Shown here piece by piece: positions 27,285 through 53,959 of a stretch of 64,000 nucleotides of DNA (the first letter of the stretch is position 1; every line of letters begins with the position of its first letter). Origin of the DNA: Mustelus asterias (lineage: Eukaryota). The stretch covers positions 18,104,001 to 18,168,000 of the forward strand of contig NC_135816.1 in NCBI RefSeq assembly GCF_964213995.1, read 5' to 3'. Below the pieces are notes generated by a model. That model was not told the DNA's origin, ran no database searches, and saw only the letters and a program-made list of their open reading frames with translations. Position numbers and translations under genes: made by a program.

Positions 27285-28185
27285 CAAAGGCTCTCCTAGC
27301 GGCCGCTCCAAGTACTCCAGCCCGAGTATAGCTCGCGGGCTCCCCGAGTGGCAAATTGGTGAATCACAGCCATAGTGCAACCCGCGGGCTCCTCTAGCGG
27401 CCGGATTCTAAATAACAGCCCGGATACGGCCCGCGGGCCCTCCCCTAGCGGCAGATTAGTAAGTTACAGCCTGGGTGCGGCCCGCGGGCTCCCCTTGCGG
27501 CTGATTAATGAATTACCCTGTGTGCGGCCCCGGGCTCTCCCTGTGGTCGGATGGTGAATTACAGGCTGGGTGCAGCCCGCGGGCTCCCCTCTGTGGCCGG
27601 ATGCTGAATGACAGCCTGGGTGCGGCCCGCGGGCTCCCCCTCTGGCCGGATGGTGAATTACAGGCTGGGTGTAGCCCGCGGGCTTCCCCGTGGCCGGTTG
27701 ATGAATGACAGGCTGGGTGTAGCCCGCCGGCTCCCCCTGTGGCCGGATGGTGAATTACAATCTGTATGCGGCCCGCGGGCTCCCCCTGTGGCCAGATGGT
27801 GAATTACAGGCTGGGTGTCGCCCGCGGGCTTCCCCGTGGCCGGTTGATGAATGACAGGCTGGGTGTAGCCCGCGGGCTCCCCCTGTGGCCGGATGGTGAA
27901 TTACAGGCTGGGTGTCGCCCGCGGGCTTCCCCGTGGCCGGTTGATGAATGACAGGCTGGGTGTAGCCCGCCGGCTCCCCCTGTGGCCGGATGGTGAATTA
28001 CACTCTGTATGCGGCCCGCGGGCTCCCCCTGTGGCCAGATGGTGAATTACAGGCTAGGTGCGGCCCGCGGGCTCCCCCTGTGGCCGGATGATGAATGACA
28101 GCCTGGGTGAGGCCCGCGGGCTCCCCCTGTGGCCGGATGATGAATGACAGCCTGGGTGGGGCCCGCGGGCTCCCCCTGTGGTCGG
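27285..28185. repeat. GC-rich minisatellite, ~48-49-bp unit, ~18 copies
   Basis: Consensus is about GGCCCGCGGGCTCCCCCTGTGGCCGGATGGTGAATTACAGGCTGGGTGC. Copies are more divergent at the 5' end. Confidence 0.95.
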
Positions 28186-28460
28186 GCAGATCAGTGTGAG
28201 GGAGCTCGGCGCACGCGCGGAGTGGTGGGCCGGGGCATTGTTGTTGTGGCAGAGCGGGGGACCGGCTGCGGGTCCAGGGAGGCAGCATGACGGTGAGGCA
28301 GGGCCCGGGGTCCGCTGGAGGAACCGCGCGGGTTGCGAGAAGCCGCTCGGGAGGGTGCAGAGGCGGTAGCGGGCTTCCCGGCATCATATCCCGGGGGTCT
28401 GGATAGGCCCCCCCCCCCCGGGACTGGCTATTCGGCCACAGGAGGCGGCATTGACTCAGG
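28186..28460 (+). promoter_or_regulatory. CpG-island promoter / first exon region of ATOX1 with an NRF1-like motif
   Basis: Dense CpG in an otherwise CpG-depleted window. GCGCACGCGC at 28209-28218. No TATA box seen. The region contains the ATG. Confidence 0.7.
28287..28292 (+). CDS. ATOX1: Copper chaperone ATOX1, coding exon 1 (Met-Thr)
   Basis: GGCAGC-ATG-ACG|GTGAGG in the CpG island. A 6-nt coding first exon gives the phase needed for exon 2 and a 68-aa product, as in human ATOX1. Confidence 0.8.
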
Positions 28461-28686
28461 CCTCTCCCCTGCTGCAGACAAGCTGCAGAAAGGTCTGGAA
28501 AAGGCACAGCTGAAGCTGTCGATGTTTCAGGGTCAGAATCCCCTCTGTGAGGCCCACAACAAACAGGCAGCTTTCTGTACAATGGAGACTGAGGCTCGGG
28601 GATTGCTGCAGCCTGGCCCGCGGCTCCCGCTCCCTCAGCCCCTGGCGGTGCTTTCCAGCCCCACTGCACAGACACTACCTGAACTG

Positions 28687-29330
28687 GGCACTGAGGGAGG
28701 AGGGGGCACTGAGGGAGGAGGGGGCACTGAGGGAGGAGGGGGCACTGAGGGAGGAGGGGGCACTGAGGGAGGAGGGGGCCCTGAGGGAGGGGCTGTGGGA
28801 TGGTGAGGGAGGGGCTGGGGGGACGGTGAGGGAGGGGCCGGGGGGACGGTGAGGGAGGGGCCGGGGGGACGGTGAGGGAGGGGCCGGGGGGACGGTGAGG
28901 GAGGGGCCGGGGGGACGGTGAGGGAGGGGCCGGGGGGACGGTGAGGGAGGGGCCGGGGGGACGGTGAGGGAGGGGCCGGGGGGACGGTGAGGGAGGGGCC
29001 GGGGGGACGGTGAGGGAGGGGCCGGGGGGACGGTGAGGGAGGGGCCGGGGGGGACGGTGAGGGAGGGGCCGGGGGGGACGGTGAGGGAGGGGCCGGGGGG
29101 GACGGTGAGGGAGGGGCCGGGGGGGAGGTGAGGGAGGGGCCGGGGGGGCGGTGAGGGAGGGGCCGGGGGGGCGGTGAGGGAGGGACCGGGGGGACGGTGA
29201 GGGAGGGGCCGGGGGACGGTGAGGGAGGGGCCGGGGGACGGTGAGGGAGGGGCCACAGGGAATGGTGAGGGAGGGGCCGGAATTGAGGCAATGGCGAGGG
29301 AGGGGCCGAGGCAATGGCGAGGGAGGGGCA
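28687..29330 (+). repeat. G-rich compound minisatellite in ATOX1 intron 1 (18-bp unit x~5, then 23-bp unit x~20)
   Basis: GGCACTGAGGGAGGAGGG repeats are followed by GACGGTGAGGGAGGGGCCGGGGG repeats. The array runs into Deu-SINE core sequence at ~29325-29450. Confidence 0.95.
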
Positions 29331-37687: not shown

Positions 37688-40600
37688 AACACATCTGGTA
37701 ATCGGTGTAAACAGAAAAGGTAACTACATACCACTGGAAGAATTCTGCAACGCACAGAACCTATGCTCTGCCAATGTTTCTGCACAAATACTCAGTGCTT
37801 AGAATATCTATCCAGCTGTCTTTGGACTTTGAAACCAGTATTTTCACATCTTGTGTCTTTAAAAGCTATTGTTACAATCTCCAAAAAGAGATTGATAAGA
37901 TTTAAGAATAAATCAGAACTTCCAGTGTAACAAATGATTAAAAGCACTATCGACTAAACACTAATTATGCTTTAAACTACAGAGCAGAGCAATCCCCCTT
38001 TTATATGTATCATGTATCACACACTCAACCGAATTACAATCCTTAAAGCAAGCAGCCCACAGTTCCCCTCAGCTTCCAATGGGTTCCTGTAGTTTTGCTG
38101 AGTAGTAACTTAAAGTGACAGTCTCCGTGTCTCCAGCCACTTGCCTCAGTTTTCAGTTTTTCTTAAATCCACCTCCAGCATAAAACCTGGTCCAATGATT
38201 CTTCCTCTCCCAATCATGCTAGAACAAATCTCAGGGAATCTTTAGAAGGCTGGGGGCAGCTCCCGACTACGTTCAGCTGTGGTAGCTCGCAAAGCCAAGC
38301 AGCCTTTCTCTGTCTATGATATTCATTAATTTGTAGGGTAGCCTGTAACCTGATCTCAAAAATGGCTTCCTCTGCCACCCTCCCCATGGCAATGTGAAAC
38401 ACGTTAACTTTGCTTATATCTAGGTAAAATGGTAATTAGCTATCTTTGACCCCCCCCAAGCTCCCTCTCATCTTGGAAGTAAATGGACGATTTACATCCT
38501 GACCTATAACATTTTCCTTGGACTTTGGAAGACTCGTTGCAAAATCAGACTGCTGTCATTTTCTCCAAGCGTAAATACCTTGCACCATCTTCTCAGTAAA
38601 ACAATCTAATCCTTCCTTTGATCGCTTACAATCAAACCATCCAGCCTTTCTGTCAGGCATACTTCAGAACAGGTCACGTTAAACCTTCTTTTAACCTAAA
38701 CTTAAAGTTACAGTCCCAAAATATAATCTTATAACCCTTATAGTTATAATTCCATGCCTTTTATAGGAGTTCTTTAGTGAAACATTGAAAGTGGGGAAAG
38801 CAGAATTGGGTTCATTGATAAGTAAATAAAATGACGTATACTTTTGCAAAACAAAAGTGACTTGGATCAAGTATGAGATCAAGTGTAATACCTGCTTTTG
38901 TCAGCTGGGATCTAGTGTGTCTCTTGCAGGGACCATGAATTGGATTCAATTTGAATATGAATTGTTTTTGGTGGATTTAAGAGCTTGCCCTGTCCACTCT
39001 GCATTGGTTTTGTAATTCTGAGAAAGGAATAACATTTTAAAAGAAGCTAGAAGGAGGTTTAAAGCAGTGTGAATTTCTAGCTTTCAAGTGTCTGTAGGGA
39101 GTTATTTATATTGTATGATTAACTCCAGGGCAGAACTTTGTGAGGTGAAACACTTGCTCAAATCAGCATCACTATCAAGAGCATACATCACGTAATCTTT
39201 CCAGATAATGCTCACTCACAAAAGCCTCTGTTATCTCAACTTGCTTGTATAAACTCTAGGTCACATTTCAAATGATAGTGCTGCTGTTGATGACAACTGC
39301 TTTCGCTCTTGTTTTGTTTTAACCTACCATTCTGCATAAAGGTAACCACTGTTTAAGAGTCAATCTTGTGGGTGAAGTTTGGAAGCTTGTTTAATATTGT
39401 GCAGTCTCCTGGCTCAGCTCAGTCTTGTCTGTGGTGTTTATCATTCTTATTCTACCTAGCCTAGGGCTCCTAATGCTTTTGCACTGCTCACCTAATTTAG
39501 CGAGCAAGTGAATTTTTTTAAATGTGAAAAGAGTTGAGATTTCTGCTGCTTTTTATTTTAAAACTCAAGCTTGTGGTTGTTCAAGGTCTGTACAATGTGG
39601 ATGTTACCTGGTTATTTAACTGATAGTGAAGGGAGAGCTTACCTAAAGATTATAAGAATCTTTTTTCCCAGTTACGTAAGTGCTTGAGACAGACTCTTAT
39701 CACAAGTGGCTAATTCCAAGTTCATTAATTGCGATAAACTGTTGCATTAGGTTAATAGCCTGGAATTTTTTAATTTGTTTGTCTTGGATCTGTTACACAT
39801 TGTGTTTGACTTTAGGGATGAAGTTCAGGACAATCTGTCACAGTGCAGTTCTATTTGGGCTCTTAGAAGGAGTGAACAAATGGAGGCTTCCCTTCTGTGG
39901 AAAGACCCTGAAGGTGACCGCATGCCTGACACTGTATGTCAAATTCAAACAGCTGAACTAAACTATATCACTTAATCATAGGTAGCCTTACCACATTCCA
40001 TACTGACTGAGCCCATGACATTTAGCAGAGTGTTAATTAATGTGTGTTCTTCAATAAGGAGCTGTATCTGGTTCATGAAATCAAATGTTATAAAGATGTT
40101 ATCAGGCAAGGCATTGCATGTGGGCAGATGGCCACAACTGATACTTTAGCCCAACAAACCTGGAAATGTTAAGTGCTTCGCCTTATGCAAACTTTTGCTA
40201 ATTATTGCCTGTGTGTGTTTTTGACTTGTACGTGTTTTCTTGCACAAGTATTTCTTATATTACGCACCAGTCTTGGAGAAATAAATGGTCCTTGTAGTGC
40301 AGGAGGGGAATAGAATACTATGGAACCCAACCAGTCTGTGGCTATGACTGCTCCTACCCCAGTTCATCACATTATTCTTCTCGTTTTAATTTCCTTCCAC
40401 CCATTAACTCTGCACTCCCAAACCATTCTCCAACCGAAAACCCATTGCAGGCTTAAATTCAATGCCAGGAGGCACAGCAGAATGAAGAACTGAAAGTCCA
40501 TCTCTGATTTCCTTTTGCCTCTGGGCCTTCATTGCTGTTAACTGGTAAGGAAATCTGTTCTGTGCCACGAAATGAGCTCCTGCGAAATAAGGTTTTTTGA

Positions 40601-47545: not shown

Positions 47546-48207
47546 TGTGATGTTACTGTACCTTTGAGTTTTTAAGTTTATGCTCACAACCTTAGGTGAT
47601 GTCATTGTTGGGAGGAGAAAAAAACTGGGCAGGTCAGGTGATAGGAGTTCAGTTTCAGTTTTGGGAGTTGGCGTGTTAGCAGCATCAAGCTGGAAGAGAA
47701 GTCTCTCCCTGATTTTTTTTTTCCTTTGGAAATTCTGTTGTTTTCCTGAAGGGTGAAAATCTGCTGGACCAGAGTTTCTCTTGTGTTTTGGGAAGCTGTC
47801 CTATCTTCAAACTGTTCCGAATGAATCCAGGAACCGCAGACTTCACCCAAAGGACTCAATTTCCATTATCACGTGAGCAGTAGTCTTTGCTGTAGGTAAT
47901 CTGTTTGAAGGGTCGTTTATGGAGGTTGGTTTGATTGGAACACATTAGATATCTTTGTTAAGGGTTATACATTATAGTGGTTGTTTCGTTTCTTTGTAAT
48001 TAATAAATGTTCATGTTAATTTTCTTACTTATTATACATGTTGACTATATTCTTAAATAAACTTTGATAAAAGCTCCCTCGTGGGTCATTTGACTCATAC
48101 CTGAAGTGAAGCCTGTCATGCTTGTCCTAGCCAAATTCAAGATGCAAAACTTATGATCTGGATGGGCTCCATAAAATACTTAGGAGTTTTTGACCTGAAC
48201 CATAACA
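47546..48207 (+). repeat. LTR copy 1
   Basis: TGTGATG...CATAACA with AATAAA. Followed by TGAGGGCTTGTCCAGGAT, a 15/18 match to the tRNA-Pro PBS TGGGGGCTCGTCCGGGAT. Confidence 0.9.
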
Positions 48208-48789
48208 ACTGAGGGCTTGTCCAGGATTAAAATCCATATTTCTTGATTGATTTGGGATTATTGAACTCAGACAGTGAGCGGTGAGCATATTGGTGTTTTC
48301 TTTTCATGTGTTGTACTCAGATTTAAATAGGGAGTGCCTTGTGGAATAATGGTTCTTTCAGAGTCTAAGAAGTTCTTGGGAGGTGGAAGAGATCACGCAA
48401 GGCAGTTTACAAAAGGGGACTAAGATTTTGGAATTGGCAAAACAGTGCAGTTGACATTGCCTGACAGTGTATGGAAAGGGAAGGTATTTGTGGTGATCGC
48501 TCAGCATTTAAAATTGCCAGAAACACAGTCAGAATCACTCAAAATGGTTAGAATTCAATTACAATTGAAACAGTTTGAATTACAACAAGATAAAATAAGT
48601 GAAACTGCTTGAGCTACAGATCAGGGAAAAAGAAAGGATAGCCCGAGCAGAACAAAAAGAGAAAGAAAGGATAACCCTAGCAGAACAAAAAGAAAGGAAA
48701 GAGAAAAATACAGAGATTTTGGATTTCAGAAACTGGCCATAAAATGGGAGCATCAGTTAAAATTGCCGGAGGTAAAGGGAAAAGTACAG

Positions 48790-49011
48790 TGTTATGGTTC
48801 AGTCAGAAACTCAAGTGTTTTATGAAGCCCGCCTGAATCATAAGTTTTGTATCCTGAATTTGGCTAGGATAAGCATGAGATGTTTCACTTCAGGTATGAT
48901 TCAAGTGACCCTTTAGGGAGCTTTCATCAAACCAAGTTTATTTAAGAATATAGTTAACATGTATAATATGAAAATTAGCAAGAACTTTTATCAATTACAA
49001 ACAAGAAACAA
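48790..49011 (-). repeat. Inverted 3' end of a third LTR copy
   Basis: Starts TGTTATGGTTCA, the reverse complement of the LTR terminus, and is homologous to the last ~220 bp of both LTRs. Confidence 0.85.
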
Positions 49012-51480
49012 TCTGATTTTTGATCAGATGGTTGAAAAAGAACAAGATCAGGTGGAGGATGAGGTGGATACTTTTAGTTTGGGAAGGTTGGCAGAGTTGC
49101 AACAGAAAGATATAGAAATAAAACAAATGTATCAGAAAGCATACACGGAAGAGGAATCTGAGTGTATTGTGGTCTAAGTGGTATTGCCGGTAGGGTGTAG
49201 AAAGGAGGTTGCAAGTAAAACATGAGGTACCAATGGGAGGACATTTGGGAGTAAGGAAAACTCGAGCTAAAATACAGAAACATTTTTATTGGCCTGGACT
49301 GCATTAAGATGTAGTTAAATTTTGTCGATCATGTCACACGTATCAAGTGATAGGGAAACCTCAAGCGGTGATAAAACCAGCACCCTAATACCCTTTCCAA
49401 CATTTGAGAAATGTTTTATAAGGGTCTTAATTGATTGCGTAGGATCCCTCCCGAAAACAAAAAGTAGAAATCAATATCTATTGACTACATTGTGTGCATC
49501 TCGGTTTCCAGGGGTCATTCCATTACGCAATATTACAGCTAACAGGATTGTAGAGGAGTTACTTCAATTTTTTACTAGGTATGGACTACCCACAGAAATA
49601 CAATCAGACCAAGGATCTAATTTTACCTCAAAGTTATTTAAGGAGGTTATGGATAGCTTAGGAATAAAACAATTTAAATCAACTGTGTACCATCCATCGT
49701 CGTCCAGTACTTCCCCGGAGCAGAGAAGCTACGGCATCTCCTCCGGAGCCTTCAACATGAAGACGAACATCTCGCCAAGGCCATCCCCACACCCCCACTT
49801 CTTGCCTTCAAACAAGCGCACAACCTCAAACAGACCATTGTCCGCAGCAAACTCCCCAGCCTTCAGGAGAACAGTGACCATGACACCACACAACCCTGCC
49901 ACAGCAACCTCTGCAAGACGTGCCGGATCATCGACACAGGTGCCATCATCTCACGTGAGAACACCATCCACCAGGTACACGGTACATACTCTTGCAACTC
50001 GGCCAACGTTGTCTACCTGATATGCTGCAGGAAAGGATGTCCCGAGGCATGGTACATTGGGGAAACCATGCAGACGCTGAGACAACGGATGAATGAACAC
50101 CGCTCGACAATCACCAGGCAAGACTGTTTTCTTCCTGTTGGGGAGCACTTCAGCGGTCATGGGTATTCGGCCTCTGATATTCGGGTAAGCGTTCTCCAAG
50201 GCGGCCTTCACGACACACGATGGTGCAGAGTCGCTGAGCAGAAACTGATAGCCAAGTTCTGCACACATGAGGACGGCCTCAACCGGGATATTGGGTTCAT
50301 GTCACACTATTTGTAATCCCCACAGCTTGCCTGGACCTGCAGAGTTTCACTGGCTGTCTTGTCTGGAGACAATACACATCTTTTTAGCCTGTCTCGATGC
50401 TCTCTCCACTCACATTGTTGGTATCTTAAAGACTTGATTAGCTGTAAGTATTCGCATTCCAACCATTATTCATGTAAATTGAGTCTGTGTCTTTATGTGC
50501 CCTGTTTGTGAACAGAATTTCCACTCACCTGAAGAAGGAGCTTGGAGCTCCAAAAGCTTGTGTGGCTTTTGCTACCAAATAAACCTGTTGGACTTTAACC
50601 TGGTGTTGTTAAACTTCTTACTGTGTTTACCCCAGTCCAACGCCGGCATCTCCACATCATACCATCCAGAATCACAGGGTGCTTTAGAACGGGGGCATCA
50701 AACTTTAAAGACAATGTTGAGGGCTTATTGTCAAGATTATCCAGAGGATTGGGATAAAGGAATTCCATTTGTACTCTTTGCAATTAGGGATGCACCAAAT
50801 GAATCAACCAAATCCAGTCCATTTGAATTGATTTTTAGTTATGAGGTAAGAGGGAGAAATTGGTGAGTGAGCGTTCTGAGACCACATTATTGGACTGTGT
50901 GTCAAATTTTAGGGAAAGGTTGAATAGAGCAGGTGAATTGGCGAGGCAACATTTAAAAATATCAGCACATGATGAAACAGGAAGCAGATAAGAAATCAAA
51001 AATTTGTAGTTTTGCTAGTGGGACAAAGTCTTAGTACTGCAACCTTTAAAAGCAAAGCTTATTCGGCCAAACTGAAAGGAAATTGAGTGAGGTGAATCAT
51101 TTGATAAAAATGCCAAATAAAAGGAAAACTCTCAAAGTGTGTCATGTGAATATGCTTAAAAGGTATTTTGATAGGGAAGGAAAGCAAAGGAAGGATGTTT
51201 TTGTGGTAATACCACAGAGTGTAGAACCAAATTCAGATGACTTTGAATTTGACATTCCTCAAATTAAATTGGATAACGAGGGTGTTATTAAAAATTGGGA
51301 TAAATTACTGAGTTATCTTCCAGAGGAAAATCGAATTGGCCTGATAGAGTTATTAATATTACATGGACAAGCATGTGAGAATACACTGGGAAGTACTAAG
51401 GTAATTGGGAGTGAGATAGTTGTAGAGAGTGCTGTTCTAATTAAACAACATCCTGGCAAATATTCCCTTTCCAAGTTGGC
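49012..51480 (+). pseudogene. Disrupted Gypsy integrase followed by the RT N-terminal region
   Basis: H..H/C..C zinc region (GGHLGVRKT, HFYWPGL, CRSCHT), rve core and C-terminal CHVNMLK, then LLSYLPEE...LIKQHP. Multiple stops and frameshifts. Confidence 0.8.
49697..50659 (+). mobile_element. 5'-truncated Penelope-like element with GIY-YIG endonuclease
   Basis: TCNSANVVYLICCRKGCPEAWYIGETMQTLRQRMNEHR...VGEHF...GLNRD. The pLTR has a CTGAAGA core at 50530. TACCATCCA is duplicated at 49688-49696 and 50660-50668. Confidence 0.92.
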
Positions 51481-51989
51481 ACAGGTTCGGGTGGAAAAAC
51501 TGATGCTTACTCAGTCTGAGATGCAGCGGCCAAAAGTCTCAGTCAATCACACAAAACTGGTGGAGAACGCAACCAGTAGTTGGACAATGATGTGAATAAA
51601 GAAAGTGGGCAGGTGTGGAGACAGATACAAGTCAAGTTGACTGGTTTGGAACATGTTCCTGAGTTGTTCAAATTGTCTGAACATAAATTGCTGGACTGTC
51701 AAAAACAGACCATCATCGATGCAAAGAGACGTGTGGATGAAGCAACAGTCATATGTGATCTCAAAAAGGAGTTTGAGGAGCGGAAGTATCGTACTAATGT
51801 GGATCAAAGGAAAGGACAACGTGAGATCAGACTGTTTGCCAAAATTGTACCATCATCTAAAATGAATTTCTGGCATAATGATTCTGTGCAGTGTACAGAG
51901 ATGCGGGTGCCCAGTGAAACAGCACTGTATGCAGCTGGTGTTTGAATAAATTATGGTGGTTTTTGCAGCAGCGTAACTGACACTGTTAT

Positions 51990-52306
51990 TTGTTTTTTTA
52001 TACTTTTCCAATTCAATCAAATCAAATCCAATTCAGAGTCTCAACAAGTTGAGACATTTCCGATCCAGGCTGACAAGACAGGGCATGCAATCCTCTACCC
52101 TGTCTTGGGCCTGATCTACATGAGCCAAGCTGATTGGAGTAGGCGGACATCTCCGCCCCCCCCAGGCTTGATCTCATTTGCATCTTAGCCAAAAGGCCAA
52201 GACACCGCTTTTAAAAATTGCTTCATATGAATCATATGAAGCTTAAATGCAACCCAATGGCCACTACCAAGTGCAGCATCACCAGACCACACTTGATCTT
52301 AGCCAA
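51990..52306 (-). mobile_element. Candidate U2-snRNA-derived retroposon
   Basis: Two 20/21-nt matches to the 5' region of U2 snRNA (52182-52202 and 52286-52306) and a GATTT-repeat/A-rich 3' end. Confidence 0.5.
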
Positions 52307-52633
52307 GTAACCATGGTCGAAATAGGTTCCGACACCAAGAAAGACAATCTGCTGTGTGTCTTTGCCAAAGAGTGTGCAGAAATTGATGGTGAAGATCGAG
52401 AGCAAACAAAGGAGTCAAATTGTTTAGCAGAGGAGGAGCTAAGGCCAATGAACAAGAAAGCGGACAAGATAAAATGACCTTCCTGAATGGCCCTGACTAC
52501 ACACATGTAATGTGTTATCCTGCTGATTCTGCTTCGTTCTCTGAGGACATTGCCAGAGCTAATTTATCATTGCAACAACAAACTGAGTTTGGATTTGGAA
52601 TCAAAGCAGGATTAAAGACTGAAGGAGAATATT

Positions 52634-53038
52634 TTGATTTGATTTAATTTGATTTATTGTCACATGTATTGGGATACAGTGAGAAGTATTGCTTCTTGCA
52701 TGCTATACAGACAAAGCATACTGTTCATAGAGAAGGAAATGAGAGAGTGCAGAATGTAGTGTTACAGTCATAGTTAGGGTGTAGAGAAAGATCAACTTAG
52801 TGCGGGATAGGTCCATTCAAAAGTCTGATGGTAACAGGGAAGAAGCTGATCTTGGGTCAGTTGGTATGTGACCTCAGACTTTTGTGTCTTTTTCCCGACG
52901 GAAGAAAGTGGAAGAGAGAATGTCCGGGGTGCGTGGGGCCCTTAATTATGCAGGCTGCTTTTCCGAGGCAGCTGGGAGGCTGGTTTGTGTGATGGACTGG
53001 GCTTCATTCACGACCTTTTGTAGTTTCTTGCGGTCTTG
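52634..53038 (-). mobile_element. Rex1/Babar-like LINE 3' end
   Basis: Reverse complement of 56056-56487 with an (ATCAA)n tail. Confidence 0.8.
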
Positions 53039-53276
53039 GAGAATTATTGCGGTATTGAAGAGGAAGCTGTTTGTCACAAATGTGATAAAAGAAGGAGTGT
53101 TCGATGGTGGAAGACAAGGACTGAAAGGGACTACATTAGTATTATATTTGCATGTTTTGATTTTGTAACAATGTAAGTATATTTATTGTAGAGTCCTAGT
53201 ACTGTGAAACTGAAAGATTTGAAAAATGATACCATCTTTGAAAGTTGATGGTTCATTTTATTCTTAAGAGGGGAGG

Positions 53277-53959
53277 TGTGATGTTAGTGTACCTTTAAGA
53301 GTGTTTTCTTTTAATTCATGCTCACAGCCTTAGGTGATGTCATTGTTGGGAGGAGGAAAAAACTGTGGGCAGGTCAAGTGACAGGAGTTCAGTTTCAGTT
53401 TTGGGAGTTGGCATGTTAGCAGCATCAAGCTGGAAGAGAAATCTCTTTCTCTCTCCCTGTTTTTTTTCCTTTGGAAATTCTGTTCTTTTCCTGAATCTGC
53501 TGTTGTTGGGGGCTGGACCAGAGTCTCTCTGGGGTTTTGGGAAGCTGTCTTGTCTTCAAACCGTTTGGAGTGAATCCAGAGAACTGCAGACTTCAACCAA
53601 AGGACTCAATTTCCATTATCACGTGAGCAGTAGACTTTGCTGTAGACAACCTGTTTAAAAGGTTGTTTAAGGAGGCTGGTTGATTGGAACACATTATATA
53701 TCTTTGTTAAGGGTTATACATTATAGTGGTTGTTTTGTTTCTTGTTTGTAATTGATAAAAGTTCTTGCTAATTTTCTTACTATACATATTGACTATATTC
53801 TTAAATAAACTTTGTTTGATAAAAGCTCCCTTGTGGGTCATTTGAATCATACCTGAAGTGAAGCCTATTGTGCTTATCCTAGCCAAATTCATGATGTAAA
53901 ACTTATGATCTGAGCGGACTCCACAAAATACTTTGGAGTTTCTGACTTGAACCATAACA
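53277..53959 (+). repeat. LTR copy 2
   Basis: Preceded by the PPT. TGTGATG...CATAACA, alignable to copy 1 along its length. Confidence 0.9.

Follow-up and report, generated by a model that had tools for sequence, protein, structure and literature searches.

A young retroposon family built from pieces of U2 snRNA in Mustelus asterias, with copies inside U2 genes and a likely source in them

On the minus strand of contig NC_135816.1 of Mustelus asterias, a short A-tailed sequence begins with a piece of U2 snRNA, carries a second U2 piece in its interior and lies within a larger retroelement. The window, by which is meant the whole stretch of 64,000 nt that was analysed, thus raises a double question: what kind of element is this and, if it is mobile, how can it be transcribed and copied? 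[quoted passage not shown]

The features of the element are collected in Table 1. Its ends were fixed by comparison with other copies and with nine empty sites. The sequence features listed by the first-pass annotation were all recovered on the minus strand: a first 21-mer matching U2 at 20 of 21 positions (52306-52286, host U2 nt 17-37), a second U2 piece announced about 85 nt further on and located 83 nt later (52202-52182, host U2 nt 7-27, again 20/21), the octamer, with the repeated AGATCAAG beginning 3' of it at 52174, a small hairpin at 52055-52038 and the A-rich end, whose A tail stops at 51993. Full copies consist, from 5' to 3', of U2 nt 1-35/40, an antisense arm, a short hairpin, a T/A linker, U2 nt 4-27, two long hairpins and a last third. 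Nucleotides 1-37 of the consensus are identical to host U2. The first pass had also noticed that the first 16 or so nucleotides of U2 are missing; this is a 5' truncation of the copy at hand, since among 36 unselected loci 27 have their start at nt 1-13. Rfam gave no match at the gathering score in the window, a local search retrieved only U2 7-26 (E 0.41), and weak non-U2 Rfam matches were taken as chance. The signal of the element itself is not due to chance, since two exact markers, one from its middle and one from its tail, match 5,200 and 5,121 places of the genome, respectively, and the reversed controls none.

Table 1. Features of the retroposon copy and of its host element (window coordinates)
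Feature	Position	Strand	Basis or remark
Older Gypsy-like LTR element, host of the insertion	47550..53800	+	LTR-like repeats 47550-48052 and from 53281, 85% alike
Whole element: ~330-bp U2-headed retroposon copy, 5'-truncated, A-tailed	51993..52306	-	98.1% to subfamily consensus (consensus includes the window copy)
U2 head, U2 nt 17-37, one change in the branch-point-pairing region	52286..52306	-	20/21 to host U2
Antisense arm; predicted pairing partner of the U2 head, branch-point-pairing bases included	52258..52277	-	Predicted folds of this copy and all 6 subfamily consensuses
Short palindromic hairpin, its length variable; then T-run/A-run linker	52220..52242	-	
Second U2 piece, in the interior (U2 nt 4/7-27); predicted extended U2 stem I	52180..52205	-	20/21 to host U2 7-27; Rfam U2 7-26; fold
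Octamer-matching 8-mer, likely incidental: four stem bases and A-rich linker	52176..52183	-	
Two long predicted hairpins	52066..52177	-	Stems constant, loops subfamily-specific
Stretch from U2 nt 39 to about 115, likely decayed; GATTT repeats at its end	52000..52081	-	
3' end: short motif resembling the last bases of the LINE, then A tail	51993..52009	-	

The marker counts dispose of the idea, raised in the first-pass annotation, of a single-copy rearranged U2 pseudogene. In a genome search that returned 2,001 candidates, the 40 that were scored gave 53 matches, most of them with the same two ends, and the 12 tail-marker loci inspected were all element copies or truncated copies. The copy number is estimated at about 7,500 (more than 5,100 by the markers), an estimate drawn from the first 100 places of both marker lists, which span an identical 66-Mb stretch of contig C1 and have 68 places in common; the 135,653 U2 candidates of a first look were not taken as a copy number. 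The family is young: of 101 distinct full copies, 89 fall into six clusters, at 2.7-3.6% from their own consensus, while 12, several of them older, remain unclustered. Target duplications of at least 9 nt flank 16 of 36 unselected loci (a sample of 40, from which four were dropped as second matches in one array) versus 0.2 expected from shuffled pairs; the other 20 of the 36 have none of that length. In the set of the 30 closest loci, 11 have such duplications. Moreover, 26 of 132 copies stand in same-strand pairs less than 600 nt apart, where about 0.2 would be expected. Between such tandem copies lies a target duplication, and their subfamilies differ, a pattern expected if one site is hit repeatedly. 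The family is therefore short, U2-headed, non-coding and A-tailed, with thousands of dispersed copies, mostly with common ends, and target duplications at many loci. The two readings offered in the first pass, an snRNA-derived SINE and a non-autonomous U2-targeting element, both hold, as descriptions of one SINE-like family. At L011, L081/L082 and L257, a copy of the element in the opposite orientation has entered the head of another or abuts it.

The window copy was inserted, without a duplication, into an older LTR element that contains an integrase core domain (49319-50017) and that, as in the first-pass annotation, is taken to be of the Gypsy type. All nine other copies of its flank are empty, so the retroposon is no part of the LTR element, another of the alternatives considered in the first pass. 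Comparison with these nine empty sites leaves 0-1 nt duplicated, which bears out the earlier remark that no target duplication was to be seen. The same LTR element also houses other nested retroelement fragments, at 49678-50316 and about 52640-53060, presumably Penelope-like and Rex1-like. Elsewhere in the window, the stretch 38898-38964 (+) weakly matches the last third of one subfamily (73%, E 1e-4) and may be a very old fragment, and adjoining GC-rich tandem arrays with units of 49, 18 and 23 bp occupy 27334-29280.

How much of the element beyond its two evident U2 pieces derives from U2? The last third aligns to U2 from nt 38 onward in a constant register; the direct match is weak, its score being reached by 2-64 of 300 shuffles for the main U2 type. 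An old relative (L055:5937-6028, minus strand) matches both U2 and the last third of the element, a score that none of 1,000 shuffles reaches in either comparison. Standing between the two, this relative makes it likely that the last third is decayed U2, from nt 39 to about nt 115; it also points to an earlier U2-derived family. A U2 origin of the segment behind the head and of the middle hairpin was tried as well and found unsupported, as 32-175 of 300 shuffles reach the score. The roughly 150 nt that the first-pass annotation took for a non-U2 body are thus likely in part decayed U2. By eye, 10 nt of the body resembled the region upstream of the C24 U2 genes; this was dropped, because the stretch aligns to U2 and lies in a stem.

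The first pass had pointed to the octamer as the Oct-1 site of snRNA enhancers; a promoter role for it is not supported. In the predicted fold its first four bases supply the 3' side of the stem-I hairpin in the internal U2 piece; no exact octamer lies within 1.5 kb of the host U2 genes at any of the four loci, the nearest similar site, with one mismatch, being at -355; and the window alone contains ten octamers. It is kept in 95 of 101 copies, a sample partly selected by a marker that contains the octamer, and 24 of 276 8-mers are kept equally well or better. The octamer looks incidental.

The first-pass annotation had proposed to look for copies at U2 loci, and these exist. In a U2 array on C24, the element is inserted at U2 nt 38|39 inside a real U2 gene, behind native upstream DNA, with 99.3% identity to the neighbouring unit over 1.5 kb. 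A C21 array of 449-bp units likewise has the element inside U2 genes, preceded by native upstream DNA. In the copies within both arrays the head of the element merges with the gene's own 5' end. Exact junctions between the element's tail and U2 nt 39 number six (control, 0): two in arrays, three in orphan array pieces (C1, C14) and one on C12, which has U2 on both sides and lies within a new 13-nt duplication. Since there are only six exact junctions among more than 5,100 tails, targeting of U2 is weak. DNA of the C21 upstream type followed by a U2 head was met in 16 places, of which nine continue as the element, three as the LINE described below and four as intact U2.

Furthermore, such C21-type upstream DNA is carried by dispersed copies, together with a 5' piece of U2; the upstream DNA amounts to 93 nt in L196, 36 in L198, 13 in L209 and 7 in L241, and new target duplications of 16, 13, 18 and 12 nt, respectively, enclose these copies. 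L210 repeats L209, and L208 has 6-9 nt of upstream DNA and no duplication. Upstream DNA cannot come from a jump onto U2 snRNA, so the RNAs of those copies came from U2-gene loci. Extra 5' pieces of U2 before the head are known from 48 matches, 17 of which represent one amplified LINE junction. They end at nt 43-58 only, in a search pattern that allowed later ends, and this is the span given by a duplication at the U2 38|39 site. All 25 of the 26 extension loci that were read continue as the element, 15 of them with new duplications of at least 10 nt. Only tens of element copies carry such U2 extensions, and no other common 5' extension was seen in 66 loci. The in-gene copies examined fall into two clusters other than the subfamily of the window copy, or into no cluster; only L208 and L258, both U2-extended and about 94% alike, tie that subfamily to U2 loci.

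A candidate for the enzyme that copies the element is found in the same genes. The U2 array on C24 contains an 8,035-bp unit with a LINE in it. The tail of this LINE is joined to U2 at nt 38|39, and the LINE's domains, according to Pfam, are ZCCHC3-like, zinc-knuckle, AP-type endonuclease and reverse transcriptase; a copy in L120 has an open frame of 1,144 aa. This LINE is abundant and young, with 5,566 candidates genome-wide and 94-100% amino-acid identity in the 150 scored. Most of these 150 are dispersed, with unrelated flanks, so that the LINE is not specific to U2 genes. Of 16 dispersed copies retrieved, four extend to the 5' end, and all four have a U2 head at their start. In six of 29 distinct LINE loci the element directly follows the LINE tail, with a target duplication between the two, and across the genome a U2 head (of the element, the LINE or U2) comes after 75 LINE tails: the two are inserted together. 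From its domains and insertion site the LINE may be called Tx1/Keno-like, and none of 26 homologues bears the name Tx1 or Keno. It is likely, judging from these sequences, that the element was pasted by this U2-headed, U2-targeting LINE. The first-pass annotation had suggested looking for a LINE sharing the 3' end of the element; what was found in common is about 10 terminal nucleotides. No LINE with a long 3' tail shared with the element was found, and the tail-marker count (5,121) matches the internal-marker count (5,200). The element is without the AATAAA of the LINE, and the short LINE-like 3' motif is missing from its oldest copies. The element was also considered as an internal deletion of the LINE, and this was rejected, given that local scores of its body against the LINE were no higher than against unrelated flank and that a profile search gave E 0.8.

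Put together, these data suggest the following cycle. The LINE enzyme would nick a U2 gene at nt 38|39 and reverse-transcribe the element RNA from its A tail; the U2 head would then merge with the gene's own 5' end, or leave nt 39 to 43-58 duplicated; RNA polymerase II would read head and body from the U2 promoter; and most new copies would land elsewhere, as promoterless dead ends. The dispersed copies with U2-gene upstream DNA make it likely that the element is read from the U2 promoter, which would explain how promoterless elements come to be transcribed. In another explanation, following the model of Kojima (2015) for SINEU elements, the sources would lie outside U2 genes and depend on flanking host promoters, the U2 heads and extensions would arise by template jumps, and the in-gene copies would be dead by-products. 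The published account of SINEU argues for such jumps and flanking promoters in the parts that concern them (PMC4494074), and a jump of this kind did take place in L122, where U2 nt 11-29 were added to a truncated LINE, presumably by a template jump onto U2 RNA, so that extra U2 pieces alone are no proof of a U2-gene source. The lack of the window's subfamily among the in-gene copies examined also fits outside sources. They would, however, not place DNA from upstream of U2 +1 inside new duplications, as in L196, L198, L209 and L241; nor do they sit well with the ends of the U2 extensions, which stop at nt 58, or with 66 loci that offer no other common 5' extension. We hold outside sources to be unlikely.

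Two further alternatives concern the promoter and the helper. The element could have an snRNA-type promoter of its own, as is reported of newt satellite 2, so that in tandem arrays each copy would be driven by the octamer and a downstream motif of the copy before it. The excess of close same-strand pairs would agree with this, as would the conserved octamer, which stands about 200 nt before the next head. The tandem copies, however, are separated by target duplications and differ in subfamily, these tandems include the LINE as well, the octamer lies partly in an RNA stem and is absent in exact form from the host U2 genes, and no group of copies has the tail of an upstream copy as its 5' extension (L085 is one possible case); a promoter of this type seems to us highly improbable. 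It is also conceivable, and in our view quite improbable, that transcription from U2 genes is correct and that another LINE priming on A tails was the main helper, at least for the older subfamilies. The missing long tail in common, the different ends of the oldest copies, the 20 of 36 loci that are without a duplication of at least 9 nt and the presence of more divergent LINE relatives (71-85%) near U2 genes would all suit a different helper, against which stand the LINE's identical U2 site, its co-insertion with the element, duplications of similar length and a similar youth.

The RNA of the element is predicted to fold strongly, the six subfamily consensuses having z scores of -5.9 to -10.7, and in each of the six predicted folds the U2 head, including its branch-point-pairing bases, is paired away. 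The pairs between antisense arm and U2 head are kept across 41 copies, mostly via one-sided changes. With a structure derived from the consensuses of the same copies, inherited variants (those in at least five copies) keep the pairing in 26 of 36 cases and private variants in 39 of 147; inherited variation affects 45 of 190 paired columns versus 55 of 115 unpaired ones, and changes on both sides occur in only 3 of 68 pairs. A fold that hides the branch-point-pairing bases would be predicted to keep the element RNA from acting as U2. A bolder reading, to which we assign even chances, is that of an obligate parasite of U2 genes: a promoterless SINE, almost wholly made of U2 pieces, that reproduces only through its in-gene copies, whose head rejoins the promoter in each round and which is selected to fold the branch-point-pairing bases away, sparing splicing. 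If true, it would be the counterpart, for snRNA genes and polymerase II, of the parasites of rDNA, and would directly answer how snRNA-headed SINEs are transcribed. A separate observation on the RNA concerns rare A-to-G changes (sense strand), of which four to seven each are present in four of 129 full copies (L213:1225-1549, L238, L210 and L252); no copy has more than two rare T-to-C changes, the totals being equal (45 A-to-G, 44 T-to-C). Editing of the folded RNA from A to I before copying is a possible cause of the A-to-G-rich copies.

The closest known elements are SINEU-1, -2 and -3, found only in crocodilians, where they target Mariner-N4_AMi, according to the relevant parts of their description (Kojima, 2015; PMC4494074). 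As U1 and U2 promoters lie outside the RNA, the same account leaves open how snRNA-headed SINEs are transcribed (PMC4494074). The present family resembles SINEU, as characterised there, in its U2-derived head, its length of less than 500 bp, its A tail, the repeated 5' addition of U2 pieces, the tandem copies that sandwich a duplication and a likely partner that is a LINE with an snRNA head itself (PMC4494074). No internal promoter is reported for SINEU (PMC4494074), and in the present family the octamer looks incidental. Unlike what these parts describe, it inserts in U2 genes and carries DNA from upstream of them; its copies, about 7,500 in number, lie within 3-4% of their consensuses. The family is likely independent of the crocodilian SINEU and would extend a SINEU-like way of life beyond crocodilians by a likely independent origin. 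No U2-headed SINE outside crocodilians was found in the titles and beginnings of abstracts searched, which cover few subscription journals, and the family may already be catalogued in repeat collections.

The insertion site is that of the U2-specific LINEs Utopia and Keno, the latter of the Tx1 clade: in the passages concerned, nt 39 is the first downstream U2 base of Utopia and the flank of Keno is identical (PMC4640811), and here too U2 resumes at nt 39. The candidate helper has an AP-type endonuclease and a reverse transcriptase like Keno, and its weakened specificity recalls reptile Utopia, for which the same passages report weakened target specificity (PMC4640811). Unlike Keno and Utopia as portrayed there, the element codes for nothing and its likely helper is mostly dispersed; the word "non-autonomous" is absent from PMC4640811. 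A further parallel is offered by R2 and the R2/R1 SIDEs of Drosophila rDNA, where, in the sections on these elements, a short non-autonomous partner occupies the site of its LINE in a multicopy RNA gene and depends on transcription of the host gene (PMC3414825). SIDEs are described in those sections as internal LINE deletions with a 5' ribozyme (PMC3414825); the present element is built from U2, gave no Rfam ribozyme match and no hammerhead core by eye, has no similarity to the LINE beyond the head and the last bases, and has thousands of copies outside its target gene.

This genome has copies that are young, copies that lie in U2 genes with the upstream DNA intact, and dispersed ones still carrying such DNA; it makes the transcription of these SINEs directly testable, and a 330-nt RNA placed by a LINE at a fixed site in a multicopy gene would be a compact model for site-directed insertion. 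Moreover, the pair of retroposons disrupts and reshapes essential arrays of U2 genes. At C24:44.81-44.94 Mb (L051, L175), about 16 near-identical 8,035-bp units each contain an intact U2 gene and an interrupted LINE copy, from which it follows that the LINE has multiplied there with the array and not by retrotransposition. At C21:28.05-28.08 Mb (L107, L162, L163, L244) lies a second type of U2 gene. It is 90% identical to the C24 type; its units measure 449 bp and have an upstream region of another kind, and many of them have received the LINE or the element. Orphan pieces of arrays of this C21 type, with full upstream DNA and an inserted element, are present at L245 (C14), L246 (C8) and L247 (C1) and are possible new source loci. 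Lastly, the 1,833-bp U2 array at C24:43.02-43.05 Mb (L171, L172) includes several units, at least six, with rearranged U2, in which a repeat of the head replaces the target site of the LINE; these could be scars of insertion or target-less variants spreading in the array.
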